A stretch of 64,000 nt of DNA from Prevotellaceae bacterium UBA711 (GCA_002297545.1 DBLZ01000042.1:2374-66373), one strand, 5' to 3'; counted from the first letter of the stretch, positions 22,383 to 46,077 are shown. A program made the numbers and translations. The notes: a model not told the origin generated them from the letters alone.

Positions 22383-22383
22383 G

Positions 22384-28111: not shown

Positions 28112-28597
28112 TTATTGTTTGATACCAATCTCATTAAGCCATGCTTGCACATCGAAACAGGGACAGGCTTTAGAACTGACCTCGTTGTGGCCGATGATGC
28201 GGACATCTGGAAAACGTTGGTGAAAGTCCTTTACATAATGCTCCAGTGCTTTCTTCTGCTCCGGGGTTCTGGTGTCCTTTGAGGTCTTACCATTCCGAGC
28301 AGTACCACCAGCATATACGATGTGCCGACTTACGCTATTATAGCCCCGGACTCCGTTGGTGATTTCCCATGAGTCCACATTGGCATCCTCGTTGTTTCCG
28401 ACCATCCGCTCCACCCTACCGTCCAAATGGATGAGGTCAGTATAGCCCACCTGCTTCCACCCACGCCCACCCTTGCTTACCGGGTCGGTGTGCCAATGGC
28501 GTATCTCATCGGTAGATACCTCACGGCCTTCGGGCGTGGCGGTGCAGTGGATGACCAGATATTTCAGTTTGGACATATCATGCAGCCTCGTGTTCAC
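28112..28597 (-). CDS. N-acetylmuramoyl-L-alanine amidase endolysin (Amidase_2/PGRP type)
   Basis: 161 aa. LVIHCTATPEG, ..HNEVSSKACPCFDV.. Zn-amidase pattern. Confidence 0.85.
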   Translation of the reverse strand: MNTRLHDMSKLKYLVIHCTATPEGREVSTDEIRHWHTDPVSKGGRGWKQVGYTDLIHLDGRVERMVGNNEDANVDSWEITNGVRGYNSVSRHIVYAGGTARNGKTSKDTRTPEQKKALEHYVKDFHQRFPDVRIIGHNEVSSKACPCFDVQAWLNEIGIKQ

Positions 28598-29636: not shown

Positions 29637-29666
29637 TGCTGTCTGTTTCTTTTATTGGTTATACAT

Positions 29667-30605
29667 TCAAATCTCACACTCCATGCCATACTCGGCCTTG
29701 TACAGACGCTTGTATTCGTCAGGCTGCTTCTCACGCAACTCAGGTAGCTTGTCCGACGGCACTTCGCTCAACTTTTGGTATGTCATCGGGGCACCGGTGG
29801 GCAGACCACCGTGATGGCCAAGTGTCTGGCTGAGCTTCATCTGGGGGGACATGGCGGCAAAGACCTTCTGCAATTCGTCACTGCCGACTTTCTTTCCAAG
29901 CTCAATGAACTGCTCCTTCTTGTCAGGTGAGATGCGCTTCTCTCCTATGGCAGCCTCCACCGTCTTGGTGATGGCTGCAAGGGTAAGGGTCTCCTTGTCC
30001 TTCTTCAGGCCCTCGTTCTCCGCCTTAGCGGTCTTCAACTGTTCGATGGCGGTCTCAATGGCCGCCTCGTCGGCCGTTTCCGGCAGGCCTAACTGTAAGG
30101 CCAGTTTCTTCTGTTCCATTTCTTTGTAATTGTTTTGGTTGGTATTCAATAGAGGCAAAGGGCACTCTCCGTCCTTGCCGAGGGTAATGCGTTGTCCATC
30201 TTTATGCAATACGATAGCATCGTCATTGGCACCTATGTCCACCAGCGAGACCTCAAAGAGCTTGCTCTTGGTGATAGTGGGACGCGTCTGGCCCTGAACA
30301 AGATGCTGCGGCTCATCACTCAGCTCCAATATGTCAAGTCCGACACTTACCATGCGGAGGCTGCCAAATTCGTACTGTTTCTTGCAGCGTATTGACAGTT
30401 CTGAGGCTTCATCAAACATTGGTTCACCCGTCACCTCGTCATTCTCCACCTTTAGGTCTTTTACATAACCTATGACGTTCCCACGCTCATGCTGATACAA
30501 TAATACGGGATTACGGCAATACTGCTCCACATTCATGCCTGATGTCAATGCACGTGTACCATAGCTATTCAGGCTGTCGTTACTGATTCTTACTCTCTTT
30601 CCCAT
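29667..30605 (-). CDS. prohead protease fused to a scaffold-like coiled coil (Mu gpI/Z-like arrangement)
   Basis: The N-terminal ~150 aa have the HK97-type S78 protease pattern (..LYQHERGNVIGY.., FEVSLVDIGANDDA). The C-terminal half is a coiled coil. Confidence 0.7.
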   Translation of the reverse strand: MGKRVRISNDSLNSYGTRALTSGMNVEQYCRNPVLLYQHERGNVIGYVKDLKVENDEVTGEPMFDEASELSIRCKKQYEFGSLRMVSVGLDILELSDEPQHLVQGQTRPTITKSKLFEVSLVDIGANDDAIVLHKDGQRITLGKDGECPLPLLNTNQNNYKEMEQKKLALQLGLPETADEAAIETAIEQLKTAKAENEGLKKDKETLTLAAITKTVEAAIGEKRISPDKKEQFIELGKKVGSDELQKVFAAMSPQMKLSQTLGHHGGLPTGAPMTYQKLSEVPSDKLPELREKQPDEYKRLYKAEYGMECEI

Positions 30606-30800
30606 TATCTATATATGATTAGAACATTATTGGAATGGCGTTTTGAGGCCTTTCGCACTGCAAGTTTACGGACTTATTTTCACCTGCCGAAATAAGTATG
30701 AAACGCTTGCACACAAGTGTGAAGCCGCTGCAGCATTATTTGTCATGTCCAGTAAAAAACCGCAACTTTGCAAGTGGATTTCAACTTATTACATCTTTTT

Positions 30801-31265
30801 ATGACAAAGGCTGAGAACGAAAAAAGAAAATCACTGGCCAGGTCTCTTTACATGGCCGGTATGGAACAGACCGAGATTGCAGAGAAGGTGGACGTATCAC
30901 GTGTCACCATATCCAAATGGTGCAATACCGAGGGATGGAAGGAGGCGCGTGCGGCAAAGAACGTGACACGTCCGGAACTGGTAAACAAGCTGCTGCTTAC
31001 AATCGACACGCTGATTACACAGGTGAACGCATCGGAAGACCCTACACTGATTGCCGGACTTGGTGACAAGCTGGCCAAACTGTCTGCCGTCATTGACAAA
31101 CTGGACAAGAAGGCGAATGTGGTAGATGCCATCGAGGTATTCATGGCTTTCTCCAAGTGGATAGAATTCCGTTCTACCATAGACCCGGAGGTAACGCCGG
31201 AACTTATCAAGGCTATCAACAAGTACCAGGACATGTATATCACAGAACAAATGGGTATAAAGTAA
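30801..31265 (+). CDS. HTH protein, putative terminase small subunit
   Basis: ATG at 30801. HTH MEQTEIAEKVDVSRVTISKW. The stop lies 1 nt before the large terminase ATG. Confidence 0.5.
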   Translation: MTKAENEKRKSLARSLYMAGMEQTEIAEKVDVSRVTISKWCNTEGWKEARAAKNVTRPELVNKLLLTIDTLITQVNASEDPTLIAGLGDKLAKLSAVIDKLDKKANVVDAIEVFMAFSKWIEFRSTIDPEVTPELIKAINKYQDMYITEQMGIK

Positions 31266-31266
31266 C

Positions 31267-32823
31267 ATGGCAACACTGGCAGAAAAAAAACAGGCATACG
31301 AGGAATGGCGCGAACATTGTAAACGGGTTCAGTCCATCACCGACACAGCATTGCTGGCAAACGAGACACCGGCAGAGCGTGACCGCCGTATTGCCCGACT
31401 GCAATCCAACTATGCTGCCTTCTGCGAGTATTACTTCCCGCACTTCCTCACCCTGCGAGATAAGAGCACCGGCGAGGTCATACGTACCATTCACAATGCT
31501 CCTTTTCACAACGAAGCGGCACGAAAAATACGTTCTACACCTGACCTCAAGGCGGTATTCATGTGGCCGCGTGGACACGCCAAATCCACCCACATGGACA
31601 TCTTCGTTCCTCTATGGCTCATGTTCCAGCCCAAGAGGCTCATCAACTTCATGGTGGTGGTCGGCAAGAGCGAGGATAGTGCCAAGCGTCTGCTGGGCGA
31701 CATCCAAGCAGAACTGGAGTACAACCAGCGCCTCATTGCCGACTTCGGAAAGCAGAAGGGCAGCGCGTCGTGGCAGGAAGGAGAGTTCAAGGCAGCAAAC
31801 GGGGTAAAATTCCTTGCCTGCGGTCGTGGACAGTCACCCCGTGGCCTGCGCGACCGCGAAGCACGACCCGACTACATCGTCATTGACGACCTCGACGACG
31901 ATGAACTTTGCCGCAACGATAAACGCGTGCGTGAACTGACGGACTGGGTCAAGGAGGCTCTCTTCGGTTCACTTGATGTAGGCCGTGGACGTTTCATTAT
32001 GGTGGGAAATCTCATCAGCAAGACATCCGTATTGGCCAACATTTCAAAGGCAAAAGGCGTGTTTCTCTCCGAGGTCAAGGCGGTGGACAAAAATGGCGAA
32101 CCCGTGTGGCGCGAGAAGTGGACCAGGGAGGAAGCCGAAGCCTACCGCGACTTCGTGGGATACCGCGCATGGCAGAAGGAGATGATGCACAATCCCATAG
32201 TCAGCGGCACCATATTCCACGCCGAATGGATACAGTGGCGCAAGGTACTGCCACTGCGCGACTATGTGAAGCTCATCTGCTACACCGACCCATCGTTCAA
32301 GGCACGTAAGAATGACTACAAGGCTTCCGTTCTGCTGGGCAAACGCCGCGACGGCAGCATCGATGTTATCAGAGCCATGTGCCGACAATGCTCCGTGACC
32401 GAGATGGTGCGCTGGCAATACAACCTCTACGACGAGAACCCGGATGCAGCAATCCTCTACATGATGGAGGCCATCTTCGCTCAAGACATCCTACTCGACG
32501 ACTTCGAGTCTGAGGGGAAGACACGGGGCTATCAGTTGCCGCTCACGCCCGACTTCCGACAGAAGCCCGACAAACTGGCACGCATAGAATCCATATCCCC
32601 CCTGTGGGAACGTGGCTTCGTATGGTACAACGAGAAATACAAGGACACCCCAGACATGCAGACGCTCATTGAACAGACACTGGCACTGGAGCGCGGAGGT
32701 ACCGCACACGACGATGGCCCGGACGCTTGTGAGGGAGGCATGTACTACCTACAGCGCGACACCAGGCAAAAAAACAACAAACCCATATTCGGCAAAAGGC
32801 CGAGTCCCAAAAACGGATGGTAG
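31267..32823 (+). CDS. terminase large subunit
   Basis: 518 aa. ATPase motifs (WPRGHAKST, YIVIDDLDDDE) followed by an RNaseH-like nuclease half. Sits upstream of the portal gene. Confidence 0.8.
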   Translation: MATLAEKKQAYEEWREHCKRVQSITDTALLANETPAERDRRIARLQSNYAAFCEYYFPHFLTLRDKSTGEVIRTIHNAPFHNEAARKIRSTPDLKAVFMWPRGHAKSTHMDIFVPLWLMFQPKRLINFMVVVGKSEDSAKRLLGDIQAELEYNQRLIADFGKQKGSASWQEGEFKAANGVKFLACGRGQSPRGLRDREARPDYIVIDDLDDDELCRNDKRVRELTDWVKEALFGSLDVGRGRFIMVGNLISKTSVLANISKAKGVFLSEVKAVDKNGEPVWREKWTREEAEAYRDFVGYRAWQKEMMHNPIVSGTIFHAEWIQWRKVLPLRDYVKLICYTDPSFKARKNDYKASVLLGKRRDGSIDVIRAMCRQCSVTEMVRWQYNLYDENPDAAILYMMEAIFAQDILLDDFESEGKTRGYQLPLTPDFRQKPDKLARIESISPLWERGFVWYNEKYKDTPDMQTLIEQTLALERGGTAHDDGPDACEGGMYYLQRDTRQKNNKPIFGKRPSPKNGW

Positions 32824-32824
32824 C

Positions 32825-33055
32825 ATGATACAACTGATAAAAAAAATCATTTTCGCTTGGAAATACAAGCGTGCCGTAAAAAAGGCGAACAATCTGTCCA
32901 AGCTCACTGGCTTGCGCTATTTTGTAATTTACATGAACGGTAGCCTGAAGGTCGTGCCTAAAATGGTTATCAAGGAAATGGTAAACAGACATCGCTTCCG
33001 TAAGGGTGTGAGAATGGCCGACATTGAAAAGCGGGCACTATTTGTGACCAAATAA
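32825..33055 (+). CDS. small basic hypothetical protein
   Basis: The ATG at 32825 follows the terminase stop. 76 aa. No motif recognised. Confidence 0.35.
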   Translation: MIQLIKKIIFAWKYKRAVKKANNLSKLTGLRYFVIYMNGSLKVVPKMVIKEMVNRHRFRKGVRMADIEKRALFVTK

Positions 33056-33070
33056 AGAAGGAGGTGGACC

Positions 33071-33490
33071 ATGTTTATCACAGAAGAGGATTATAAAGTT
33101 GTAATCGGTGACACTGCCTTAAAGGTCATCTCCCAGGTCAGTGCAGAGAACAGGGCTAACGCCGAGGCGGAGGCACAGGAAGAAATAGCAGGGTACTTGC
33201 GCCCAAAGTACGACTGTAATGCCATATTTGCGACTGAGGGTGCGGAACGTAACAGGCTGGTGGTGATGTACACATGCGACATTGCCCTCTACCACATGAG
33301 TGCCGCACAGCCGCAGAAAATGGGTAGCGAGGTAAGAGAGGAGCGGTACAAACGTGCTATCCAATGGCTGGAAGGGGTACAGGCAGGCAAGATTATACCA
33401 GACCTGCCTTTGGCAGTGGACGAGGATGGCAACAATACCGGGAATACATTTTTATATGCGTCACAGCATCAACTTAGACATAACTGGTAA
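33071..33490 (+). CDS. DUF1320/Mu gp36-like head-tail adaptor candidate
   Basis: 139 aa. Pattern ..AEEEIAGYLRPKYD..YHM..ERYKRAIQWLEGVQAGKI resembles the gp36 family. Confidence 0.45.
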   Translation: MFITEEDYKVVIGDTALKVISQVSAENRANAEAEAQEEIAGYLRPKYDCNAIFATEGAERNRLVVMYTCDIALYHMSAAQPQKMGSEVREERYKRAIQWLEGVQAGKIIPDLPLAVDEDGNNTGNTFLYASQHQLRHNW

Positions 33491-33496
33491 TATAAT

Positions 33497-34801
33497 ATGG
33501 GGATAAAGGATTTCTTTCACGGAATAACAGGCAAGCCTAACAATGTGCTGCACACTCCTTTTGGGGATTTCACCATGGCCAAGGGTGATCGCAAACGTGC
33601 GCAGAAGATGGTCATTGAACTGCAAAGGGCTACGGATGCCCTTACCCGTCAGGACATGCAGGACTGGCGCAACGCATGGCAGAGAGCCATCAATGTGGAC
33701 AGCCCGAACCGTCAATGTCTATACGACATCTACCGGGACGCGTTGGTGGACCTGCACTTGTCTGGATGTATAGACCAACGCATGGGATTTGTCATGTCGC
33801 GCACGTTCAAGTTAGTGGATGCTTCCGGCAATGAGGACGAAAAAACTCTGCACTATTTTGAGCAGGCATGGTTCAAACAGCTGCTCAAACTGTCACTGGA
33901 TTCAGTCTATTGGGGACATTCGCTCATAGAACTGGGAGACATCACCACCGATGGGGACGGATGCATCTGTTACGATGGTGTCAAGCTGATACCTCGTAAG
34001 CATGTAATCCCGGAATATGGACGTGTCATTTCGGATTTGGGACAGGATTGGACAACAGGGGTGGAATACCGCCAGCCTCCATTCTCGGACTGGCTCATAG
34101 AGGCCGGACAACCCGATGACCTCGGCAAACTGCTCAAGGCGGCGACACAGACCATTCCCAAAAAGAACATGCTCGCCTTCTGGGACACATTCGGTGAGAT
34201 ATTCGGGATGCCGATGCGTATAGCACGCACCACATCGCGCGATGAGAAAGAGCAAAACAGACTGCTGGACATGCTCAACAATTCTGGCAACAAGCTCTCA
34301 ATGGTAGCGCCCATGGATACGGAGATACAGTTCGTGGAGTCCGGCAAGAGTGATGCCTACAATGTATATGACAAACGCATAGACCGCTCCAACTCGGAAC
34401 TGTCCAAACTCATCATCGGGCAGACCATGACCATCGAGGACGGTTCCAGTCTGTCGCAGTCACAGACACATCTGGAAGTGTTCGAGAACCTGGTGGAGAG
34501 CGACCGCGACATGCTGCGCGACATAGTAAACAATCAGCTCATCCCACGTATGGTGAAGCATGGTTTCCCTGTCAAGGGGCTGCGTTTCGAGTGGGACGAT
34601 GCTGTGGACTACACGCCGGAACAGCAGGTAGCCTACGAGACAATGATTGCGGACAGGTACGAGGTAGACCCTCAGTATTTCGCGGAGAAATACAGCATGC
34701 CGGTGGGCGAACGCAGACAGGCTGCCATGCCTATGCCCACAGGCAACAAGGAAGAGGAGAAGAATACCAAGCAGAAGACCCAAAGGCCTTTTTTCGACTG
34801 A
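33497..34801 (+). CDS. portal protein (Mu gp29/DUF935-like)
   Basis: 434 aa, between terminase and MuF as in Mu. Family assignment rests on gene order and general sequence similarity. Confidence 0.7.
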   Translation: MGIKDFFHGITGKPNNVLHTPFGDFTMAKGDRKRAQKMVIELQRATDALTRQDMQDWRNAWQRAINVDSPNRQCLYDIYRDALVDLHLSGCIDQRMGFVMSRTFKLVDASGNEDEKTLHYFEQAWFKQLLKLSLDSVYWGHSLIELGDITTDGDGCICYDGVKLIPRKHVIPEYGRVISDLGQDWTTGVEYRQPPFSDWLIEAGQPDDLGKLLKAATQTIPKKNMLAFWDTFGEIFGMPMRIARTTSRDEKEQNRLLDMLNNSGNKLSMVAPMDTEIQFVESGKSDAYNVYDKRIDRSNSELSKLIIGQTMTIEDGSSLSQSQTHLEVFENLVESDRDMLRDIVNNQLIPRMVKHGFPVKGLRFEWDDAVDYTPEQQVAYETMIADRYEVDPQYFAEKYSMPVGERRQAAMPMPTGNKEEEKNTKQKTQRPFFD

Positions 34802-34890
34802 GCCCCACGGACTATGTGGGGCTGCACCATAGGTATGCAAGCCTGTTGAAGGGAGTGCAAGACACACTGAATGCCGGACGCGAAGAGGAA

Positions 34891-36192
34891 ATGGCCCAAC
34901 TGCGTGCACAAATCTCGCATGCCTTCGATGGCATGATGCAGGCTCTATACTCACAGAAGGGGGCACAATTCAACATCTCCATCCTGGAGACACCAAAGGT
35001 ACAGGAGTTTATCGAAACACACAGCTCCGCCCTTGACTCGTCATTCCAACAGATAGAAATGTCCAACACTATGCGCGACAGGCTACAGCGTTCCGACTAC
35101 ATCTTCTCCGGCATGAAGGCCTTTCATGAGCTTAACGAGGCATTCCCTTCCCTATTGGATGAGAACGGCAATAGAAAACCGTTCGAACGGTTCCTGAACG
35201 ATGTACGGAAGATTGACAGCACGTACAACGCCAACTACCTCCGGGCCGAATACAACTTCGTACACGCCTCTGCAGAGATGGCTGCCAAATGGGAGGAGTA
35301 CATGGAGGACGGCGACCGCTACAACCTGCAGTACCGCACCGCCGCAGATGACCATGTGCGCCCGGAGCATGCCGCGCTGCACGGGGTGACGCTGCCTCCT
35401 TCGGACCCGTTCTGGGAGGTATACTATCCGCCAAACGGTTGGGGCTGCAGATGTGACGTGGTGCAGGTGCGCAAGTCCAAGTACCAGGTGACCGGGCATG
35501 ACGAGGCGATGAAGCTCGGGGAACAGGCTACAAGCAGGGACAAGAAAGGCATCTTCCGCTTCAACTCCGGCAAGCAGGGGAAGACCGTGCCGGACTACAA
35601 TCCGTACACCATCAGCCGGTGCCGGAACTGCGATATTGCCAAAGGGAAACTGAAACTGGCATTCGTGCCGGAGAATGAGTTGTGCGAGGCATGCCAGCTC
35701 ATCCGCCAATGCGAGCGGCTCCGTAGCGAAATCATCAAGCATGGCAAAGGGACTATCGAAATAAGCCACCACGTCAACCGGGAGGACAACGATTTTGAGC
35801 GTCTCATGCAGGTGGCACAGTTCTTCGCCAAGGATGGTGCAAAAGTAGTCCTTACGCCTAAAATGTCACGTCCGCCCAAGTTTGACTATGACTGCGTGTA
35901 TGGATCGCTCAAGGATACACCTTATTATGGAAAATGCCCTGACCTCAAAATTGGGGAGTTTTGGTATGAGCACGAGGGGTTTGTTACCTCAAATCCCAAG
36001 CGTGCATTCTCTAATATGCTTGGCCATGGACTTAAACAGTCTGACAGGGTGATTATTGATAAGCCCGACTTGACCGATGCCTACATGAAACGTATCATCG
36101 CGCAAAGAATCATTGATGGCCAACACATCACAGAAGTATGGGTGAAAGAAGGCAATAAACTAAGATGCCTATATAAAAAGTCAGAGGAGTGA
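34891..36192 (+). CDS. MuF-like minor head protein fused to a C-terminal nuclease-toxin-like domain
   Basis: Phage_Mu_F signature DDHVRPEHAALHGV...PPNGWGCRCDV. The additional ~230 aa C-terminal region ends in ..CPDLKIGEFWYEHEGF..KQSDRVIIDKPDL... An upstream GTG at 34816 is an alternative start. Confidence 0.8.
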   Translation: MAQLRAQISHAFDGMMQALYSQKGAQFNISILETPKVQEFIETHSSALDSSFQQIEMSNTMRDRLQRSDYIFSGMKAFHELNEAFPSLLDENGNRKPFERFLNDVRKIDSTYNANYLRAEYNFVHASAEMAAKWEEYMEDGDRYNLQYRTAADDHVRPEHAALHGVTLPPSDPFWEVYYPPNGWGCRCDVVQVRKSKYQVTGHDEAMKLGEQATSRDKKGIFRFNSGKQGKTVPDYNPYTISRCRNCDIAKGKLKLAFVPENELCEACQLIRQCERLRSEIIKHGKGTIEISHHVNREDNDFERLMQVAQFFAKDGAKVVLTPKMSRPPKFDYDCVYGSLKDTPYYGKCPDLKIGEFWYEHEGFVTSNPKRAFSNMLGHGLKQSDRVIIDKPDLTDAYMKRIIAQRIIDGQHITEVWVKEGNKLRCLYKKSEE

Positions 36193-36334
36193 TTGCTCAC
36201 TCCTCCTTCTGCAACGAGTCGGTAGTCATTAGCTACGGAATCGTTGATGCAAATATACGAACTTATTTTCGAATAACATCATTATGAAGCGAAAAAAAGA
36301 CACACTGAAAGAAAAAGAGTATGCCGGGTACGTG

Positions 36335-36673
36335 TTATCCGTATATCTGGCAAATGAGTGCTACCAAAGAGAGCAAGAGACCCAACAGACTGCAAACAGC
36401 AGCTATAATGGTACTATACGCCAGGCGACGCTCGCGTCTGTCCTTGCCGACAAAGCCGCCGTCACGCAGCATCGCCTTACCGCGATAGGTTATCTCATAA
36501 TAATCTTCAAACTCTTTCAGGTAGCCTTCCTCCGTAAGAAAATCAATGGCACACAGCCAGTCTTTAGGGGCTTTTTCGTCGTCCAATAATAAATTGGATG
36601 GTATCCTGCCCGTCTGTACGCCATTAAACATCCCCAAAACTTCATCAAGACGTATGCTGTCAAACCAATCCAT
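36335..36673 (-). CDS. tail-anchored hypothetical protein (only minus-strand gene in the plus-strand block)
   Basis: Start taken at the internal ATG 36673 (MDWFDSIRL..). C-terminal TM AYSTIIAAVCSLLGLLLSLVALI. Confidence 0.4.
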   Translation of the reverse strand: MDWFDSIRLDEVLGMFNGVQTGRIPSNLLLDDEKAPKDWLCAIDFLTEEGYLKEFEDYYEITYRGKAMLRDGGFVGKDRRERRLAYSTIIAAVCSLLGLLLSLVALICQIYG

Positions 36674-36745
36674 ATCCTTTTTTGGCTGCAAAGATAGCGA
36701 AAACCAAGCAGTAACTGACCAAACATTTATCAAAACAACAACGCT

Positions 36746-36979
36746 ATGAACAAAATTATCACCTTTCTCAAACAAAGTAACCGCTACAAGCACCTCATCG
36801 GTGGTCTGCTGGTCGGCATCGTGGCTCTCAATCCGTGGACGGCCATGTATTCATCCCTGATAGCAGCATCATGCCTTGAGCTAAAGGACAAGCTCAAAGG
36901 ATGCTACTGGGATTGGGTAGACTGGCTGATGACAATCATCGGCGGATTGATTTCCACCATTATTTGGTGCCTTGTATGA
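36746..36979 (+). CDS. small two-TM membrane protein (holin-like size)
   Basis: 77 aa with two hydrophobic helices. Immediately upstream of the DGR TR. Confidence 0.4.
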   Translation: MNKIITFLKQSNRYKHLIGGLLVGIVALNPWTAMYSSLIAASCLELKDKLKGCYWDWVDWLMTIIGGLISTIIWCLV

Positions 36980-37009
36980 TTTCTTACCTGTAAACAGCCA
37001 TTTATTCCG

Positions 37010-37017
37010 TAACTTTG
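37010..37017 (+). promoter_or_regulatory. Bacteroides-type -7 promoter element (TAACTTTG) upstream of TR-RT
   Basis: Matches the TAnnTTTG consensus, 27 nt upstream of the TR homology. Confidence 0.4.
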
Positions 37018-37043
37018 CACCCCGAACGGTGGAGTTCCCCATA

Positions 37044-37156
37044 GCCCGTGTGGTCTATCGTGGCAACAACAACGCGAACCCGAATGGCGGTGTGTCGTAC
37101 GCGAATGCGAATAACGATGCGTCGAATGCGAACACGAATGTCGGGTCGCGTCTCGC
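37044..37156 (+). repeat. DGR template repeat (TR)
   Basis: Adenine-rich AAC/AAT codon run (..GNNNANPNGGVSYANANNDASNANTN..), homologous to the VR at 10794-10906, ends in gggtcgcgtctcgc. Lies 208 nt upstream of the RT. Confidence 0.8.
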
Positions 37157-37363
37157 AAACAGCAAATTACTAAATCGGCGTACAACACCGGGGACGTGTC
37201 CCCACAGTGGTGCCGAGGGGAACAAACCACAGCAACAGCAGCCTCATGGCTGGAAAGCTGAAAAACTAACAGGATGAGCAGGGTTTGGTAGGTCGCCACC
37301 AGGCGATTCGAAGAAGCCGGGCTCAAGAATTGAAGGCTCATAGCCTCATTACACTTAACACCA

Positions 37364-38665
37364 ATGCGCAGAGAAGGCCATATCATAGAGGAAATAGTGG
37401 ACTACGCCAATATGGCGGAGGCCTTCAAACAGGTGCTACGCGGCAAAAAGCGAAAACTATCGCGTCAAGGACGGAACATGCTTGCACATAAGGAGGATGT
37501 CATCGCGGAACTGTCCGCACAAATTGCCGAAGGCACATTCATGATCAGCGGTTATCGGGAAAGAACTATCACGGAGGGAGGAAAGCTCCGCCGCATACAA
37601 GTTCTCACCATGAAAGACCGCATCGCCGTACACGCCATCATGGCGATAGTGGACAGGCATCTGCGCAAACGTTTCATACGCACCACCTCCGCCAGCATCA
37701 AGAACCGGGGGATGCACGACCTACTGGACTACATCTGCAGGGACATGGAGCAAGACCCTAAAGGAACAAGGTTCTGCTACAAGTTCGACATCTCCAAGTT
37801 CTATGAGAGTACCGGGCAGGATTTCGTGATGTATTGTGTCCGAAGGGTATTCAAGGACAAAAAGCTCATCTCCATGCTGGACGGTTTCGTTCACATGATG
37901 CCGCAGGGGCTCAGCATCGGGTTGCGTTCCTCCCAGGGACTGGGCAACCTGCTCTTGTCTGTGTATCTGGACCATTACCTCAAGGACAAGTACGGCATAC
38001 GCTATTTCTACCGCTATTGTGATGACGGTGTCGTGCTTTGTGAAACGAAAGCGGAACTGTGGACAATTCGTGACATCATCCATTCTCTGGTGGAACAGAT
38101 AGACCTCAAGGTGAAAGCCAACGAGCGTGTGTTCCCTGTAACCGAGGGTATCGACTTTCTGGGATATGTCATCTATCCCGACCATGTGCGTCTGCGTAAG
38201 CGCATAAAGCAGAAATTCGCCCGCAAGATGCACGATGTGAAGAGCAGGAAAAGACGGCGTGTATTGACAGCAAGTTTCTACGGAATGGCAAAACATGCCG
38301 ACTGTATAATGTTGTTTCATAAATTAACAGGCAAACAAATGAAATCCTTTAAAGATTTGAATGTCGCTTACAAGCCGGAAGACGGCAAGAAGCGGTTTGC
38401 GGGTGCGGTGGTGAGCATCCGCGAGTTGGTAAACCTCCCCATCGTGGTCAAGGACTTCGAGACGGGTGTCAAAACAAGCCAGGGCGAAGACCGCTGCGTA
38501 GTGGCCATCGAAGTATCGGGTGAGCCAAAGAAATTCTTTACCAACTCGGAGGAAATGAAGAACATCCTCCAGCAAGTGAGTGAAGTGCCGGACGGTTTTC
38601 CCTTTGAAACCACCATCAAGTCGGAAACATTCGGCAAGGGTCGAACAAAATACATTTTCACATGA
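37364..38665 (+). CDS. DGR-type reverse transcriptase with a ~100-aa C-terminal extension
   Basis: 433 aa. Motif A FDISKFYES, IGLRSSQ (aa 185-191, the IGxxxSQ signature) and YCDD (aa 218-221, nt 38015-38026). Confidence 0.9.
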   Translation: MRREGHIIEEIVDYANMAEAFKQVLRGKKRKLSRQGRNMLAHKEDVIAELSAQIAEGTFMISGYRERTITEGGKLRRIQVLTMKDRIAVHAIMAIVDRHLRKRFIRTTSASIKNRGMHDLLDYICRDMEQDPKGTRFCYKFDISKFYESTGQDFVMYCVRRVFKDKKLISMLDGFVHMMPQGLSIGLRSSQGLGNLLLSVYLDHYLKDKYGIRYFYRYCDDGVVLCETKAELWTIRDIIHSLVEQIDLKVKANERVFPVTEGIDFLGYVIYPDHVRLRKRIKQKFARKMHDVKSRKRRRVLTASFYGMAKHADCIMLFHKLTGKQMKSFKDLNVAYKPEDGKKRFAGAVVSIRELVNLPIVVKDFETGVKTSQGEDRCVVAIEVSGEPKKFFTNSEEMKNILQQVSEVPDGFPFETTIKSETFGKGRTKYIFT

Positions 38666-39144
38666 GAAGAATTGAAGGAACAGCCGGGGTTAAGCCCATC
38701 GAATGCACCCACCCGGCCAAAAACAAATGGCGCATACGCTGGAATATCCAACCGAATAACGACGGCTCGGCCACATACATGGAGGAGGAGTTCAACCACC
38801 GCCCCACTGACGAGGAAATCAGACAGACCATCATCGGCTGGTACAACGCCCAGACAGAGGAAAACATTCTGTCCGGCTTTGAATGGAACGGCATGAAAGT
38901 GTGGCTCTCCACGGAAAACCAGTTCAACTACAAGGCTGCCTATGACCTCGCCATACAGACTGACGGGGCAACGCTGCCTGTCACGTTCAAGTTCGGTACT
39001 GACGATACGCCATGCTATCACACATTCAACTCGGTCGGAGAACTGGCAGACTTCTATACCAAAGCTATGACGCACATACAGTCGTCACTGGAAAGAGGCT
39101 GGAACAATAAGGATGCCTTCCGCCCGGATACATACACGCTATGA
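38662..39144 (+). CDS. DUF4376-like protein, translationally coupled to the RT
   Basis: ATGA start/stop overlap with the RT. Pattern ..ILSGFEWNGMKVWLSTENQFNYKAAYDLA..LPVTFKFG.. resembles DUF4376. Confidence 0.45.
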   Translation: MRRIEGTAGVKPIECTHPAKNKWRIRWNIQPNNDGSATYMEEEFNHRPTDEEIRQTIIGWYNAQTEENILSGFEWNGMKVWLSTENQFNYKAAYDLAIQTDGATLPVTFKFGTDDTPCYHTFNSVGELADFYTKAMTHIQSSLERGWNNKDAFRPDTYTL

Positions 39145-39220
39145 CAATAGTCCCTTCGGGGGAGGGATAAAAAAGCCCCCGGCCTGTTAAAAATCATCTC
39201 ACCTACTTTTAACCAAAACA

Positions 39221-39271
39221 CCTGCACGGCGCACGACCGGGGGCTGTATGCCCTCGCTCGCGCCGTGCAGG
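39221..39271. repeat. 12-bp perfect inverted repeat (cctgcacggcgc / gcgccgtgcagg), 27-nt loop
   Basis: Read directly. Nested inside a second 8-bp pairing, catctcac (39195-39202) / gtgagatg (39313-39320). Confidence 0.6.
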
Positions 39272-39344
39272 CTGCGTTTGGTATTGCTGCGCACAGAATG
39301 CGCATAAGTAAGTGAGATGGTGCAAAGATACATATATTTTCCTT

Positions 39345-39599
39345 ATGAAGGTATTTGAGATAGTATATTTGAACAAAGATTTGCTGAAAATCTTTCAAGA
39401 AACAGGCATAAGATCCGATGACGTGCGATACATTGAGCTGTTCAATGAATACCGCACGATGGTGGCCAATAAGTATAAGGTGTCATATATAGTGGCTTCG
39501 CTCGCCACAAAATATGGCATCAGTGAGCGCAAGGTATATTACCTTATCAAACTGTTCAAATCGGACTGCATCCTGCATGCAGCGCAAAACGCGACATAA
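39345..39599 (+). CDS. Mor/C-family-like transcription activator
   Basis: C-terminal HTH VASLATKYGISERKVYYLIK resembles the Mor family. Start taken at the internal ATG 39345. Confidence 0.45.
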   Translation: MKVFEIVYLNKDLLKIFQETGIRSDDVRYIELFNEYRTMVANKYKVSYIVASLATKYGISERKVYYLIKLFKSDCILHAAQNAT

Positions 39600-39625
39600 A
39601 CGCCTCTTTTAAGCTGCAGTCGTAC

Positions 39626-39633
39626 TACCTTTG
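39626..39633 (+). promoter_or_regulatory. Bacteroides-type -7 promoter element (TACCTTTG)
   Basis: TAnnTTTG match, 24 nt upstream of the ATG at 39657. Confidence 0.4.
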
Positions 39634-39656
39634 CACATGTTTTCAAAAGTACGACC

Positions 39657-40295
39657 ATGAACAAGTATCATCAATTACTACACAGGATTCTCCTTGAGGG
39701 GAAGAACCAGACCAACAAGAAAGGCAATATCCGCTACCTGCTCAATGAGCTATTGAGCCTTACCCCTGCCGACCTCCTTGAGATATTCGAAGGCCACGGC
39801 ATCGCCAGGAAGAAGCTGCGCTCAGAGCTGCGTCTCTTCATGCAGGGTGAGCGCAACGTGGATAAGTATCGCGACGCAGGCATACACTGGTGGGACTATT
39901 GTGGCTCCATCCTCGTAAATTCATATCCCACATATTTCGAGAAGCTGCCGCCGCTCATTGACAAGATAAACCTGGAGAAACGCAACAGCAAAAACTATGT
40001 GCTGTTCCTCGGCTCCACCAACGTGGAGAGCAATCAGGCTCCATGCCTTAGCCTTGTGCAGTTCCAGATTGACGACGGGGAACTGGTGATATCGGCATAC
40101 CAGCGCAGTTCTGATGCCAACCTGGGACTGCCTGCCGACATATACCATCTGTATCTTATAGCCCGGCAGATAAACCTGCCGCTAAAGTCCATCACCATAC
40201 ATCTTGCCAACGTACACATCTACAATAACAACATCGATCATACACGCTCGCTGCTGGACGGCAACGAGGATGTAAAATTTGAACTGAACGTATAA
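39657..40295 (+). CDS. thymidylate synthase-family enzyme, predicted deoxycytidylate C5-modifying (hydroxymethylase/methylase-like)
   Basis: 212 aa. QAPCLSLVQFQ..YQRSSDANLGLPADIYHL aligns to ThyA APCHAFFQFY..YQRSCDVFLGLPFNIASY. The catalytic Cys is at aa 130. Asp161 occupies the Asn177 position. Confidence 0.75.
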   Translation: MNKYHQLLHRILLEGKNQTNKKGNIRYLLNELLSLTPADLLEIFEGHGIARKKLRSELRLFMQGERNVDKYRDAGIHWWDYCGSILVNSYPTYFEKLPPLIDKINLEKRNSKNYVLFLGSTNVESNQAPCLSLVQFQIDDGELVISAYQRSSDANLGLPADIYHLYLIARQINLPLKSITIHLANVHIYNNNIDHTRSLLDGNEDVKFELNV

Positions 40296-41150
40296 ATGAG
40301 AAAGCACTATCTGTCTGCCCCACTCCCTTTTGTGGGACAAAAGCGAATGTTCGCACGTGAGTTTATCAATGTCCTGAAGCAATTTCCCGAGGATACCGTC
40401 TTTGTCGACTTATTTGGCGGTTCCGGCTTGCTGTCGCATATCGCCAAATGCCAGAAGCCAAAGGCGACTGTTGTTTACAATGATTTTGACAATTATCGGA
40501 AGAGGTTGGATGCCGTACCACAGACAAACGAGCTGCTGGCCGATTTGCGAAAGATTGTATCAGGCATTCCACGCCTCAAGCCCATCACTGGTGAAAAACG
40601 AGACGACGTGCTTGAGTGTATCAAAGGATATGAACGGCGCTATGGCTATGTTGACTACATCACTCTGTCGCCATCGCTCCTGTTCTCCATGAAATATAAG
40701 CTGTGCATAGAGGACATACAAAAGGAGACGTTCTATAATAAAATCAGGGCTACTGACTATCCATTGTGCACGGACTACCTTGACGGCATCACCGTGGTAT
40801 CTTGTGATTACAGGAAATTGTACCGACAGTACAAGGACAATCCCGACGTAGTATTTCTGGTAGACCCTCCATACCTGAGTACCGATGTTGGCACATATAA
40901 CATGTACTGGAAAATGTCCGACTATCTGGATGTATTGAGCATCCTTGCCGGGTATCGCTTTGTGTACTTCACTTCTAACAAGTCCTCCATCCTGGAGCTG
41001 TGCGAATGGCTCGGAAGGAACCGCACCTTGGGCAATCCGTTTGAGCACTGTAAAAAAGTGGAATTCAACACCACCATGAACTACAATTCCTCCTATACGG
41101 ACATGATGCTATACACCAATACGGAGGATGGCATTAGGATTGCGTCCTAA
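40296..41150 (+). CDS. Dam-family (D12 class) N6-adenine DNA methyltransferase
   Basis: 284 aa. PFVGQKR, SAM motif DLFGGSG, catalytic DPPY. The ATG directly abuts the upstream TAA. Confidence 0.8.
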   Translation: MRKHYLSAPLPFVGQKRMFAREFINVLKQFPEDTVFVDLFGGSGLLSHIAKCQKPKATVVYNDFDNYRKRLDAVPQTNELLADLRKIVSGIPRLKPITGEKRDDVLECIKGYERRYGYVDYITLSPSLLFSMKYKLCIEDIQKETFYNKIRATDYPLCTDYLDGITVVSCDYRKLYRQYKDNPDVVFLVDPPYLSTDVGTYNMYWKMSDYLDVLSILAGYRFVYFTSNKSSILELCEWLGRNRTLGNPFEHCKKVEFNTTMNYNSSYTDMMLYTNTEDGIRIAS

Positions 41151-41170
41151 TGGCATTTTATTCCCGTTCT

Positions 41171-41223
41171 AACGCAACAGAAGGGCGTCCCAAGCAATTC
41201 CCGGGACGCCCTTCTGTTGCGTT
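41171..41223. terminator. bidirectional terminator, 21-bp perfect stem
   Basis: aacgcaacagaagggcgtccc / gggacgcccttctgttgcgtt between convergent transcription units. Confidence 0.7.
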
Positions 41224-41230
41224 TGTGTGG

Positions 41231-41668
41231 CTAATTTTGGCGCGTACAGCGCAACTCATACACTTCTATGCTCTCCACTATCTCGTCATGGTCGTGGTTG
41301 GTGTGGGTCTCTTTCAGTGTTAGGGCGGAATATGTCTGCCCTTGCATGCCCTCCAAAGCCCGCTGAATGTCCGCCGAGTAATCAAATACCTCCAGCAACT
41401 CGTCCTGATGGGGACTGCCGTCTGCAGCAGAACCGCTCCAATCCGTCACTACATGCAGCTTCAGCCTGCATGTCCCACGCAATGCCGCACGGCCTGTGAA
41501 TGGCTGCCATTCTATCGGACCAAACTCCACAAACACGGCAGGACGCGGCCAGTTGTCTTCCTGCTCTATGTATTCCACATTGCGGTTCCACAGGTCTATG
41601 TGCTTTATCTTGCCTTCGCCCACTGTCTTCAGGCGTTCACACAGGGCTTTGTACAGTTCTTTTCTCAT
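41231..41668 (-). CDS. head-tail joining / tail terminator-like protein
   Basis: 145 aa. Pattern ..IKHIDLWN....PAVFVEF...RLKLHVV resembles head-tail joining proteins. Coupled to the gpG-like gene (ATGA overlap). Confidence 0.4.
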   Translation of the reverse strand: MRKELYKALCERLKTVGEGKIKHIDLWNRNVEYIEQEDNWPRPAVFVEFGPIEWQPFTGRAALRGTCRLKLHVVTDWSGSAADGSPHQDELLEVFDYSADIQRALEGMQGQTYSALTLKETHTNHDHDEIVESIEVYELRCTRQN

Positions 41669-42219
41669 CTCAGTTCAAATTCATGGTTAAAATAGTCATT
41701 GAGGTTCTCTTCTATAATCTCTTTTACAAGTTTCTCCACCTCTGGGGACTGGCCGATGAACCGTCGGCGGGGTATGACTATGCTCTTGCCAACCTTCATC
41801 AGAGCCATCAGTCTCCAGAACTCAGCCTCGGTACTCAGGCGAATGGTGCGCTTGTCGTTTCTGCGCTCTCCGTTCTTCTTGCGTCCGAATGCCCCTGTGG
41901 CCTCGTAGTATTTTGCCCAGAAAAAACGCTTCATCTTTGCCGTCACCTTTATCTCGCCTCCATCGTTATGTATTCCGGCATAAGGCAGGTCGGAATGGAA
42001 TGTGATGCTGTTTTCCGAGGACTTGCTCTTGATGCTCCTGCGAAGTTGGCCAGTATGTACCAGTGTGGCTCCGCCGGAGCGCATGGGAGACTTGCGCCGG
42101 GTCCAAGCCTCTGAAAAGAAAGCCTGACGTTCAAAGTTCTTGTCAAACTCGTCCGTCAGGTCAACCCGTATATCCTTCAGTATATTGCGGACTATCCGCT
42201 GCATATCATTTGTTGCCAT
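41665..42219 (-). CDS. Mu gpG-like virion morphogenesis protein
   Basis: Start at the internal ATG 42219 (MATNDMQRIV). ..LVHTGQLRRSI...LPYAGIHNDGG.. matches the pattern of the phage virion morphogenesis family. Confidence 0.6.
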   Translation of the reverse strand: MATNDMQRIVRNILKDIRVDLTDEFDKNFERQAFFSEAWTRRKSPMRSGGATLVHTGQLRRSIKSKSSENSITFHSDLPYAGIHNDGGEIKVTAKMKRFFWAKYYEATGAFGRKKNGERRNDKRTIRLSTEAEFWRLMALMKVGKSIVIPRRRFIGQSPEVEKLVKEIIEENLNDYFNHEFELR

Positions 42220-42490
42220 GGTCAAAATCAAAAAACATTTGTACGTCCTCAGGCATGGTGTTTTTTGTCTCACAGGAGGCGTTGAGTATGTTATAAAATG
42301 TACGCTCGGATATACCATAAGTAGGATATACGTATCTGCGCCATATCTCGCGGTTGGAAACACCGTCTTTGGCGTGATCATCGTATATCCTATTTATGTC
42401 CTGGACTCTTTTCTGATAACTTACTCCGCGTCTCGGCATCGTGTCGTGTCTGTTTAGGATTCCGTCATGCCTAATGGAATTGGCTTCCAC
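42206..42490 (-). CDS. HTH protein, second Mor/C-like regulator candidate (alternative start 42439)
   Basis: ..YPTYGISERTFYNILN HTH, the same pattern as 39345..39599. Confidence 0.4.
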   Translation of the reverse strand: MEANSIRHDGILNRHDTMPRRGVSYQKRVQDINRIYDDHAKDGVSNREIWRRYVYPTYGISERTFYNILNASCETKNTMPEDVQMFFDFDHGNK

Positions 42491-43128
42491 TCTCCATTGT
42501 CGCCCTTCACCTCGGCACGGACAAACTGCTTGCTCACCGCAGGCTGGTAGCTTTCCTCTATGACTTGTACTCCTTCAAGGAAGCGTTCGTCACCTGTCTC
42601 CTGTGCCACTTTTCTCAGCTGCACGATGCGTGAGGCCTTCAGCGTGCCCTTGGCATCCCGGCTCAACAGTCTCAGCACCATGCTCACCAACGATTTGGTT
42701 TTCTCGTCCTTGGCAAGACTCTGGATGTATTCCTTCACTATAGCTATGCCCTCCTCCACCGTGTCGCGGTAACCGTCTGTCACATACACTCCCAGTGTGA
42801 TGCGCTTGTTTCCCTCGCTGTTGGTAAAGGTATGGCTGCGCTGGTCGGCCTTGATTTTTGTTTTGAAGAGGTCGGACTTCATCTCCAGTATGGTTTTGAA
42901 GTTGTCCATCACCTGTTGCTTGCTCTCCTTTATCTGCTCGCTGATACCCATCAACACGGGGATTGAACTCTCTATCTCCTCATCCACCATCTTGCGGTAC
43001 ATTTCACGGTCGGCCTTGGCCTTCTCCTCTGTAGCCCTCTTGGCCTTTGCAATCTGGAAAGCCTCGAATTCGGCCTTCTCTTCTGCCGTCATCATGACGG
43101 TTTGCTTGTTGTTGTCTTTCATATTCAA
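42454..43128 (-). CDS. DUF3164-like Mu-type early protein
   Basis: 224 aa, coiled-coil N-terminus. Position and general resemblance to DUF3164 proteins of Mu-like phages. Confidence 0.4.
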   Translation of the reverse strand: MNMKDNNKQTVMMTAEEKAEFEAFQIAKAKRATEEKAKADREMYRKMVDEEIESSIPVLMGISEQIKESKQQVMDNFKTILEMKSDLFKTKIKADQRSHTFTNSEGNKRITLGVYVTDGYRDTVEEGIAIVKEYIQSLAKDEKTKSLVSMVLRLLSRDAKGTLKASRIVQLRKVAQETGDERFLEGVQVIEESYQPAVSKQFVRAEVKGDNGEWKPIPLGMTES

Positions 43129-43142
43129 TACTGTTTTAATGT

Positions 43143-43325
43143 TTAGTCTTCCTCATAGTTCTGCATCTCCGCTTCCTGACAAAGTAATGTCTCTTCATAC
43201 TTGCCGTATGCCCACTCATGGAGGTCATTGTAAAACTCCTCACGTTCTTCAAGTGACAGCCATGTGCCGGCATCAAGTATCTGCACCTTCACTCTGTCCA
43301 GGAACTCTCGCGCTTGTTTTCTCAT
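43143..43325 (-). CDS. small acidic hypothetical protein
   Basis: 60-aa ORF co-oriented and tightly packed in the early operon. Confidence 0.3.
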   Translation of the reverse strand: MRKQAREFLDRVKVQILDAGTWLSLEEREEFYNDLHEWAYGKYEETLLCQEAEMQNYEED

Positions 43326-43330
43326 AGTAT

Positions 43331-43810
43331 TTAGTTTTTCGTGGCATTGGGATTGACAAAGATACCTGTCACCGCAACCGATTGTTGTTCGTTATTATTT
43401 CCATGTCTCAGCCCGCCTTTGCGCCAAATGGTGCGCAATTTGACAGCCAATGCCTCCAGATCTTCTACTGATAGCCTCGCAAATGGCTTTCCGGCGATTC
43501 GTGGGTCCTGGCAGAAACTGTTGATGCGTGCCCAACACGTGGTATCTATCCCCAACCTCTGCATCAGCTTCAGGCACTCACTGCGCCTCTTCTTCCGTTC
43601 ATCCTTCAGCCCGGCCAGTTCCTCCAGCACATCACAGCATCTGTTGTACTCATCGCGTGTCATCTCGCGGAGGCTGTCTGTGCGGTTCCAAGTGTACTGC
43701 AAGACAAGGCTTTTCTTGAACTCCTCCCTCTCACCATCGTATGCCAGCTTGTTGAATGCGGTGTAGAACCGGGCAAAATTGGTTATTTCCTGTGCCATAT
43801 CACTTTCCAT
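43331..43810 (-). CDS. GemA/gp16 (DUF1018)-like regulatory protein
   Basis: 159 aa. ..SLREMTRDEYNRCCDVLEEL.. and ..LSVEDLEALAVKLRTIWRKG resemble the Mu gp16 family. Confidence 0.45.
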   Translation of the reverse strand: MESDMAQEITNFARFYTAFNKLAYDGEREEFKKSLVLQYTWNRTDSLREMTRDEYNRCCDVLEELAGLKDERKKRRSECLKLMQRLGIDTTCWARINSFCQDPRIAGKPFARLSVEDLEALAVKLRTIWRKGGLRHGNNNEQQSVAVTGIFVNPNATKN

Positions 43811-44069
43811 TAAGGATTAACTCACACTCTGTTGTTTTTGTACTCACCCGATAAACAATTTTATCCGGCTTTATTGGGGATGCCTCATATTCCTTTTCGT
43901 GCTGTCTGACATATAGCTTCTTGAACTCTTTGCTCATCTTAGACAGTGTCTCTTTGCTGTATGTACCAGCAAATCCGATACGCGAGCTATACATCTTGCG
44001 GTACTTTCCCTCATACACTGTTGCTGTCAATGTTATTACCACAACACCAGACTTTATTTTACTCCCCAT
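43800..44069 (-). CDS. hypothetical early protein
   Basis: 89-aa ORF in the early operon. No motif recognised. Confidence 0.3.
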   Translation of the reverse strand: MGSKIKSGVVVITLTATVYEGKYRKMYSSRIGFAGTYSKETLSKMSKEFKKLYVRQHEKEYEASPIKPDKIVYRVSTKTTECELILNGK

Positions 44070-44070
44070 A

Positions 44071-44295
44071 TCAGCCTCCCTTCTTTGGTTTCCATTCTAT
44101 CGTCACTACCGCATCCACCTGGCCAGAGCCTCCACATATCGGACACGTTTTGGGTTCATCATGCCTGCACCATACTCCTTTGAAATAGCCCCGTCCTCCG
44201 CAATACCTACACGTGTGCCCTGGGCTTGTCATCAGTTCCTTGGTGCTACATCCTTTGGGCGGAGTCAGTTCCACCATTCTTGTCACCTTGCTCAT
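44071..44295 (-). CDS. small DnaJ-type zinc-finger protein
   Basis: Two CxxCxGxG repeats (CRYCGGRG, CPICGGSG). Confidence 0.5.
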   Translation of the reverse strand: MSKVTRMVELTPPKGCSTKELMTSPGHTCRYCGGRGYFKGVWCRHDEPKTCPICGGSGQVDAVVTIEWKPKKGG

Positions 44296-44300
44296 AATTG

Positions 44301-44516
44301 TTATTCCTTTATATTAACTTGACTATTCGGATAGCTTCTCTTTATCCGGGCTGCAAACAAAACATCTTTCGTTTCAATGACGACATGACCGTTTGTCTTG
44401 GCCCGTCGTACTCTTATGTCCGACTGCATGTTTCTCTCTGCCCAATCGTCTATTATCAAGCTCGCCTCGTGGATCTTCACCAGCAATTGGAAAGTCTCTG
44501 TCCCCTTGTATGCCAT
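44301..44516 (-). CDS. hypothetical early protein
   Basis: 71-aa ORF in the early operon. Confidence 0.3.
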   Translation of the reverse strand: MAYKGTETFQLLVKIHEASLIIDDWAERNMQSDIRVRRAKTNGHVVIETKDVLFAARIKRSYPNSQVNIKE

Positions 44517-44537
44517 TGCCCGTCTCCTTTCTATTTG

Positions 44538-45164
44538 TTATTGCACAAGATTGTTGCTTGTCTGTATTATACCTTCCTCCCATACCACGAAATAGCTGCC
44601 TGCCTCACCGATGGCACGTCCTTGGCAGTATGCCTTGTACCCGACCACACGCACCTTCATGTCGCATATATACCTAAGTTTGATGGCACCACCTCCCATC
44701 GGCTGGCTCTTTTTCTCCTGGCTTACCCAGATAAAGCACTTCCTTGGAAAAAGTTTCATCAAATCTACAGCATTGGGATAATCCCAAGGAGCAACCTGGA
44801 AGGAGTCTACAATAATGAACTTCGGGCTCTTGGGCTTTTTCAGCCTGGCAATGACTTCCTCATAACTCTCATCCACCGCCACTCGGAACTTGCCTTGTAC
44901 CTCGTTCATCTTCAAATACCCACATCTCCGCTGAAAACTTTGGTTCACTCCCTCCTCATAGCTAAGATACAGCACCGTCCCATAGTTGCACAGCTCCTTA
45001 CCCAACTGCATCACGAAGCTGCTCTTGCCTGCTGCACTGGCTCCACTGATGAACCAGGAGGCGGTATCCGCTGGGAAACCGAATGGCTTGCTCCACTTTT
45101 CTTCCCACGGCAACGTTACCCATTTCTTGGAGGCTATGTCTTTAGGACTATATGCTCGTTTCAT
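44538..45164 (-). CDS. RecA/KaiC-like P-loop NTPase
   Basis: Walker A GASAAGKSSF, Walker B KFIIVDSF. 208 aa. ATGA-type overlap with the MuB-like gene. Confidence 0.55.
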   Translation of the reverse strand: MKRAYSPKDIASKKWVTLPWEEKWSKPFGFPADTASWFISGASAAGKSSFVMQLGKELCNYGTVLYLSYEEGVNQSFQRRCGYLKMNEVQGKFRVAVDESYEEVIARLKKPKSPKFIIVDSFQVAPWDYPNAVDLMKLFPRKCFIWVSQEKKSQPMGGGAIKLRYICDMKVRVVGYKAYCQGRAIGEAGSYFVVWEEGIIQTSNNLVQ

Positions 45165-46039: not shown

Positions 46040-46077
46040 AGTTCAAACGCCGTTATAATGTTGTTCTAATCATATTC

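Follow-up and report, generated by a model that had tools for sequence, protein, structure and literature searches.

A Hankyphage-related diversity-generating retroelement detached from its target gene in a Mu-like prophage, with a divergent and probably recombinant variable repeat

How does a diversity-generating retroelement (DGR) stand towards a target gene that lies 26 kb away on the opposite strand, and why do its template repeat (TR) and variable repeat (VR) differ at adenines and at other bases alike? Both questions are raised by 64,000 nucleotides (nt) of DNA from Prevotellaceae bacterium UBA711 (GCA_002297545.1 DBLZ01000042.1:2374-66373), referred to here as the window, in which an earlier note, made from the sequence alone, had placed a DGR core consisting of a promoter, a TR, a spacer and a reverse transcriptase (RT). 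The answer that we consider likely is that a 40-kb Mu-like prophage in the window, hosted by an uncultured member of the Bacteroidaceae, carries a complete DGR cassette of the Avd-less, CH1-type, Hankyphage-related kind known from gut Bacteroidales phages, and that the VR of this particular copy is a divergent, probably recombinant allele.

The RT is encoded by the open reading frame (ORF) at 37364..38665 (+), which specifies 433 amino acids (aa), matches Pfam RVT_1 (E = 1.6e-12) and contains all of the motifs that had been noticed in it: FDISKFYES, IGLRSSQ (within SIGLRSSQ) and YCDD (nt 38015-38026). The closest solved relative of the enzyme is bRT, the RT of phage BPP-1 (PDB 8ub7_A, E = 1.5e-22), which aligns end to end over residues 3-318 with IGLRSSQ opposite IGSLTSQ, whereas group II and retron RT structures score 9e-11 or worse, a group II RT being the next best at 9e-11; these matches speak for the DGR class to which the enzyme had been assigned. 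Among 140 distinct RTs of the family, SIGLRSSQ or SFGLRSSQ is found in 137 and YCDD in 139, and the window RT departs from the columns that are at least 95% conserved at two positions only, both by conservative replacements (L39M and N385S). The RT looks intact. Its core comprises residues 1-320, and an extra C-terminal domain follows at residues 326-433 (nt 38339-38662).

Upstream of this gene and on the same strand, the 114-nt TR was delimited at 37043..37156 by an in-window BLAST alignment to the VR. The repeat had been described as a segment of 113 nt (37044-37156) lying 208 nt upstream of the RT gene; it is indeed there, with a start one nucleotide earlier and a gap of 207 nt. It holds 27 adenines, is rich in AAC and AAT codons, as had been claimed, and reads in frame as GNNNANPNGGVSYANANNDASNANTN, with its adenines at codon positions one and two. 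The Bacteroidetes-type -7 promoter motif TAACTTTG, which had also been reported, is found upstream of the TR at 37010..37017 (+), and 101 of 108 distinct upstream sequences of the family have TAnnTTTG no more than 90 nt ahead of the TR (mostly at 29-38 nt) in variable surroundings, a conservation that is consistent with a promoter element. At its 3' end the TR closes with the GC-rich 14-mer GGGTCGCGTCTCGC (37143..37156, +); the same 14-mer stands in the VR at 10794-10807, and the homology stops directly after it, so that by analogy with the initiation of mutagenic homing (IMH) site of BPP-1 it may be an IMH-like boundary. The 207-nt spacer that separates the TR from the RT gene contains a structured RNA at 37173..37325 (+), Rfam RF03068 'RT-3 RNA', with a covariance-model score of 137.7 bits against a gathering threshold of 40.5 and a full-length match (model 1-148, E = 4e-33). 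RNAalifold, applied to the spacers of 38 relatives, gives 34 pairs, 19 of which show compensatory changes. The RT-10 motif is the TR-RT spacer of BPP-1, and other RT motifs have been speculated to serve other DGRs (Weinberg et al., PMC5737381); the RT-3 RNA of Rfam is now assigned to the TR-RT spacer of the present lineage. More than 100 relatives keep the promoter motif, the TR, the structured spacer and the RT together as a unit.

The target is the final gene before the prophage end, at 10727..17671 (-), and encodes a 2314-aa tail-fibre-like protein (phrog_14959). The VR occupies 10794..10907 (-) at the 3' end of this gene, inverted with respect to the TR and 26,136 nt from it; it ends 64 nt from the target stop codon, which lies 193 nt from the prophage end. 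The TR aligns with the minus strand of 10907..10794 without gaps and with 78.9% identity over 114 nt (E = 4.6e-23), which confirms the suggested homology to the 3' coding end of a giant tail gene. Half of the 24 mismatches are at TR adenines (12 of 27 adenines) and half at other bases (12 of 87; C>T 4, T>C 3, C>G 2, G>A 2 and G>T 1), and a codon-by-codon reading of the alignment shows that some of the non-adenine differences are synonymous third-position changes. The mismatches are therefore enriched at adenines (Fisher p = 0.002) yet far from exclusive to them, and the pair does not show the confinement of TR/VR differences to TR adenines that is expected of DGRs. The signature of targeted adenine mutagenesis that the earlier note had announced thus survives here as an enrichment in a pair that is not clean, and is much cleaner in the sister phages described next.

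The 90% cluster to which the neighbouring 809-aa tail protein belongs led to the sister phages, a protein search with the target C-terminus having given a best match of only 72%. Their TR is identical to that of the window in nine contigs from eight samples or assemblies (114/114, or every base present where the contig ends within the TR), and also in L323; the assembly that holds L325 is among the identical-TR cases. Compared with this TR, the VRs of five sister contigs (L325-L329) show 6-14 differences at adenines and 1-2 at other bases. Four of these contigs come from four runs of one study, and when L326 is aligned with L327, L328 and L329 over 12-20 kb, 9-14 mismatches are found, all but one within the VR. 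Of the 22 variable VR columns among the four, 21 are TR adenines and one is a C-to-A change, so that the population pattern that the earlier note had proposed to look for, variation confined to VR positions opposite TR adenines, is seen in the window's own sub-lineage. Comparison of these assemblies shows the detached DGR at work in the sister phages, with the same TR and with diversification almost only at adenines. Likewise, in about 40 Hankyphage-like relatives with an adjacent TR/VR pair, the mismatches are almost only at adenines.

Other pairs in the family resemble that of the window. Many non-adenine TR/VR mismatches are also present in L049, L069, L078, L103/L164 and L125/L214, and a Parabacteroides massiliensis pair has 13 mismatches at adenines and 13 elsewhere; judged from the assembled pairs, TR/VR-mismatched hybrids recur in the family. 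Short-read assemblies often break within the repeats: L319 starts at window position 10832, L324 ends 22 nt into the VR, and the contigs L333 and L335-L338 end within the TR. Contig breaks in the VR were considered as a sign of heterogeneity and set aside as unreliable because contigs break within the TR too, and either VR heterogeneity or shared k-mers may be the cause.

The Mu-like prophage spans 40,149 bp (10534..50682) and is flanked by a 4-bp GTTT duplication inside a host gene for an 898-aa outer-membrane beta-barrel protein (CarboxypepD_reg and OMP_b-brl_3), the parts of which remain at 9676..10518 (-) and 50683..52525 (-). Its exact junctions follow from six metagenome contigs (L313-L318) in which the site is empty, and the alignment with L326 halts exactly at 10534; ends taken from inverted repeats (10569/50670) were 12-35 bp off the empty-site junctions and were discarded. 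The genes include Portal_Mu, Phage_Mu_F, Mu Gp36, an AAA_22 MuB-like protein and an S24 repressor (48592..49272), and these genes bear out the Mu-like prophage context that had been assumed. The block o77-TR-RT-CH1-Mor-like-ThyS-MTase (ThyS, thymidylate synthase; MTase, N6-methyltransferase) is positioned after TerS-TerL-portal-MuF on the same strand. Related RTs (69-89% aa identity) were surveyed in 80 genomes, each representing a species; at least 21 of these have the gene order portal-MuF-TR-RT and lack a VR within 10 kb, and about 45 are arranged like the Hankyphage p00. Three remote inverted pairs on IMG/VR contigs have all of their mismatches at adenines (5/5, 12/12 and, in a third, partial pair of 78 nt, every one), whereas two further remote pairs are mixed, with 11 adenine and 5 non-adenine mismatches in one and 8 and 19 in the other, the VR of the latter resembling a p00-type TR. 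Judged by gene order in these genomes, the detachment and inversion of TR-RT form a conserved variant and are no assembly oddity. Since the cassette is 26 kb from its VR and inverted, it must act in trans.

Why, then, do the TR and the VR of this copy disagree? The window and its sisters are 99-100% identical along most of the genome (L323/L324, which have the same TR, are 98.8% identical to the window over 21 kb), whereas the final 3.5 kb of the target (about 13,500-10,534) are only 85-93% identical. Over 10,534-26,000, comparison with L324, L325 and L326 gives a mosaic in which blocks of 99-100% identity alternate with blocks of 83-95%, the divergent tail blocks lying, for example, at 25,800-23,700 (tape measure), 20,700-18,900 and 16,200-15,600, a picture that points to frequent recombination among the tail genes. 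The flanks of the window VR are 87-90% identical to those of L326, a level similar to the 86% at which the window VR agrees with the TR at non-adenine positions. The first 22 nt of the sister VR agree with the TR throughout, a stretch in which the window shows five non-adenine mismatches; the GC-rich 3' boundary and the 3' flank of the VR are conserved. Probably, therefore, the 3' end of the target is a heterologous allele gained by recombination, and most simply an unsampled TR other than the resident one was the last to write the window VR. Because complete homing would erase non-adenine differences, it is likely that the resident TR has left the VR untouched ever since the allele was acquired; the cassette of this copy looks intact.

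Four findings weigh against this account. No sampled TR fits the window VR better than its own: among 97 distinct TRs compared with the VR, the own TR has 12 non-adenine mismatches and the others have at least 15, and the supposed donor lineage must therefore be unsampled. At least seven of the 12 non-adenine differences are states private to the VR that occur in no listed TR (read by eye), which fits drift equally. A further run of this lysogen (L339) yielded the VR in unaltered form; the lysogen's contigs from SRR2191007, SRR2190826 and SRR5325138 are 100% identical. Finally, the AlphaFold2 model of the last 240 aa of the target has a predicted local distance difference test score (pLDDT) of 54.7 and leaves a C-type lectin fold unconfirmed, its confidence being too low for a fold search. 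The target C-terminus has no Pfam or PDB sequence match, and the p00 target C-terminus, which is 69% identical to it, is reported to hold a C-type lectin domain (PMC6199706).

The private VR states and the constancy of the VR across independent runs are what would be expected if the DGR were dead towards this target, homing having ceased after the separation or after the change of allele, the VR having drifted by point mutation and the adenine bias being a fossil. The 12 non-adenine mismatches, which exceed the maximum of 11 in a survey of 372 DGRs, and the mismatched pairs found elsewhere in the family are also on the side of this explanation, which we nevertheless regard as possible rather than probable: the intact RT, TR, RT-3 RNA, promoter motif and CH1-like gene match those of the diversifying sisters exactly or nearly so, the boundary and 3' flank of the VR have been conserved, and a drift of about 12% that is limited to the 3' end of the target while the rest mostly remains at 99-100% is hard to obtain without recombination. 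It could further be proposed that the RT of this lineage is less specific for adenine and that the non-adenine differences are noncanonical mutagenesis, given that substitutions of the non-A-to-N type occur in 23% of the surveyed DGRs, where they have been put forward as a genuine mutagenic capacity, and that one C-to-A change is among the 22 variable columns of the sisters. The same columns make this very unlikely, because the same TR with a nearly identical RT yields 21 of 22 variable sites at adenines; in addition, the window differences include the synonymous third-position changes, they match the divergence of the VR flanks, and the RT is without unusual substitutions.

The half of the differences that lies at non-adenines could also suggest, as the earlier note had envisaged, that the TR-like segment is no template and arose by duplication of the gene's 3' end followed by decay. 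This can practically be dismissed, since the segment is invariant in sister phages in which the VR varies at adenine-linked positions, always lies between the conserved promoter motif and the RT-3 RNA and RT, and has the AAC/AAT-rich composition, with adenines at positions one and two of its codons, and the mismatch enrichment described above. We thus retain the reading of a complete cassette with a divergent, probably recombinant VR allele.

If this cassette operates by analogy with BPP-1, the Bacteroidetes-type promoter would give rise to an RNA with the 114-nt TR followed by the RT-3 RNA, the 433-aa RT would copy the TR into complementary DNA (cDNA) with misincorporation opposite adenines, the RT-3 spacer would probably serve as scaffold and primer, and the cDNA would replace the VR at the 3' end of the tail-fibre gene. 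The CH1-like protein and the C-terminal domain of the RT are candidate helpers. A tentative extension of this scheme, which we consider possible but less likely than not, is that Avd-less Bacteroidales DGRs have a distinct retrohoming machinery, in which the C-terminal beta-barrel of the RT, the acidic and translationally coupled CH1/DUF4376 protein and the RT-3 RNA replace Avd and the BPP-1 spacer. Were this true, the relocation of the cassette by 26 kb would show such a machinery working fully in trans, and mismatched hybrids like that of the window would be natural states 'before homing', in which the retargeting of a new receptor-binding allele could be observed.

The CH1-like accessory candidate is the ORF at 38662..39144 (+), which encodes 160 aa with an isoelectric point (pI) of 5.2, has its start codon overlapping the RT stop codon (ATGA) and matches DUF4376 in Pfam (E = 1.4e-5) and phrog_19239; the DUF4376 protein has no PDB relative. 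It directly follows the RT gene in nearly all relatives of both architectures, and its size, acidity, adjacency to the RT and occurrence in an avd-less DGR agree with the description of CH1 (PMC5758913), to which it was matched by that description. None of the ORFs flanking the TR and RT matches Avd in Pfam, NCBIfam, PHROGs or PDB; o101 and o77 were rejected as Avd candidates for want of matches. The small hydrophobic o77 (36746..36979, +; 77 aa, phrog_38535) accompanies the TR-RT cassette, and in some Hankyphage-like relatives (L069-L075) the phrog_38535 ORF sits between the target gene and the TR.

Beyond the CH1-like gene, a basic ORF of 84 aa at 39345..39599 (+), conserved in the cassette module, gives weak matches to Mor transcription activators and helix-turn-helix (HTH) proteins in all 16 homologues tested; it was likewise rejected as Avd, being weakly Mor/HTH-like instead, and is possibly a late-gene activator. 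The intergenic region between the two (39145..39345) contains a long GC-rich hairpin at about 39192..39320 (-86.9 kcal/mol, z = -6.3), which has no Rfam match and may be a terminator or a regulatory element of the cassette. Further downstream, the order of thymidylate synthase and N6-methyltransferase is swapped relative to the window in L017-L021, L025-L026 and L032-L033.

The extra domain of the RT (residues 326-433) was modelled by AlphaFold2 with a pLDDT of 85.7 and shows the order b1-b2-b3-a-b4-b5, as in OB folds, and a fold search with the model gave no significant PDB match, the best hits (E = 0.16, template-modelling score at most 0.42) being scattered OB-fold proteins. PHROG 19665 and many database matches of 103-110 aa had suggested that the domain also exists as a stand-alone gene. 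This was refuted: the 108-aa candidates that were inspected (P0121 and P0138) are truncations at contig edges, and those in L305-L307 are a frameshift-split RT in which the thumb runs in frame into the C-terminal domain. The latter belong to a distant DGR (L305:2751-4104, also L306 and L307) in which every one of 18 TR/VR mismatches is at an adenine; the same frameshift, with thumb and C-terminal domain in the other frame, is present in three independent samples and may reflect programmed frameshifting or a recent pseudogene. In a 1261-aa protein (P0347), seven separate stretches match the C-terminal domain (29% identity), which suggests that the fold is used elsewhere as a tandem repeat.

Outside the prophage, the host flank at 53,000-62,305 carries apparent glycan- and sialic-acid-related functions, including a NANM-sodium:solute symporter fusion (56249..58822) and GH95 (59786..62305); counterparts in the empty-site contig L313 are annotated as GlcNAc 2-epimerase (window ORF 55055..56230), SDF and DUF386. 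A tRNA gene lies at 62553..62624 (+) (Rfam tRNA, 71.8 bits).

The known picture of DGR biology is unchanged by these findings. They add to the Hankyphage-related DGR family a divergent Mu-like prophage from Bacteroidaceae, and what is new is this divergent member itself, the detached architecture that is both conserved and active, the assignment of the RT-3 RNA and the TR/VR-mismatched hybrid. In the latter, a resident TR is apparently paired with a foreign VR, so that a single round of homing would leave a visible trace by overwriting 12 non-adenine positions, and the lysogen lends itself to testing whether a DGR can capture a newly recombined tail-fibre allele.

Among known systems, BPP-1 (mtd-avd-TR-brt) shares with the window the full-length homology of the RT core with IGxxxSQ, a TR that lies upstream of the RT and is separated from it by a structured spacer, a receptor-binding tail gene whose 3' end holds the VR, and a GC-rich 3' boundary. 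The window differs from it in having no Avd, a 108-aa extra RT domain, a CH1-like gene, an RT-3 instead of an RT-10 spacer and a target that is inverted and 26 kb off. The earlier note had singled out the remote inverted target, the absence of Avd and the extended RT as features deserving attention; these are not unusual, having already been described for the lineage by Wu et al. (2018; PMC5758913), who report CH1 (160-169 aa, acidic, RT-adjacent) only in DGRs without avd, HRDC and MSL (Lineage 3a, Bacteroides and relatives), C-terminal extensions in about 20% of DGR RTs, and phage DGRs with a sole target that is non-adjacent and about 20 kb away. Assigned by description, the window DGR belongs to this Avd-less CH1-type lineage: it shares with Architecture E of Lineage 3/3a the Bacteroides-type hosts, the lack of Avd, HRDC and MSL, the acidic 160-aa neighbour of the RT and the C-terminal RT extension, and differs from the lineage in the pI of the CH1-like protein (5.2 versus 4.7 ± 0.2) and in its 12 non-adenine mismatches (versus a maximum of 11).

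The nearest individual system is the DGR of the Bacteroides Hankyphage p00 (BK010646; Benler et al., 2018, PMC6199706), the activity of which has been demonstrated (PMC12135933). The arrangement is different: in p00, the VR (38049-38164), the TR (38419-38534) and the RT are adjacent on one strand in the order target-VR-TR-RT-CH1-ThyS-MTase at the right end, and all 14 mismatches are at adenines, whereas the window cassette is inverted, follows MuF, lies 26 kb from its target and has 12 non-adenine mismatches. At the nucleotide level the two phages resemble each other only in the target gene, two short patches of tail genes, the lysin and a patch next to it, TR-RT-CH1, ThyS and MTase, and the MuA-like proteins are only 31% identical. 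Membership of the Hankyphage class, which the earlier note had suggested, thus holds for the homologous DGR family; the relationship of the phages is distant, and with neither more than 70% intergenomic similarity to p00 nor its gene order, which define hankyphages at the genus level, the prophage is no hankyphage in the strict sense. It fits the description of the proposed Candidatus Mubacviridae (bioRxiv 10.64898/2026.05.11.724261), a family of Mu-like, MuA/MuB-bearing, DGR-encoding Bacteroidales prophages that includes the hankyphages, p00 being the only reference genome compared here. Within the DGR module the correspondence to p00 is close: the RTs are 78% identical in aa sequence and the TR-RT regions about 76% in nucleotides, the TRs have the same length and register, the spacer is of the RT-3 type, and a DUF4376/CH1 gene and a module of thymidylate synthase and N6-methyltransferase are present in both. 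Both are also Mu-like transposable prophages in which a giant target protein, 64% identical over 2083 residues, bears the VR at its C-terminus.

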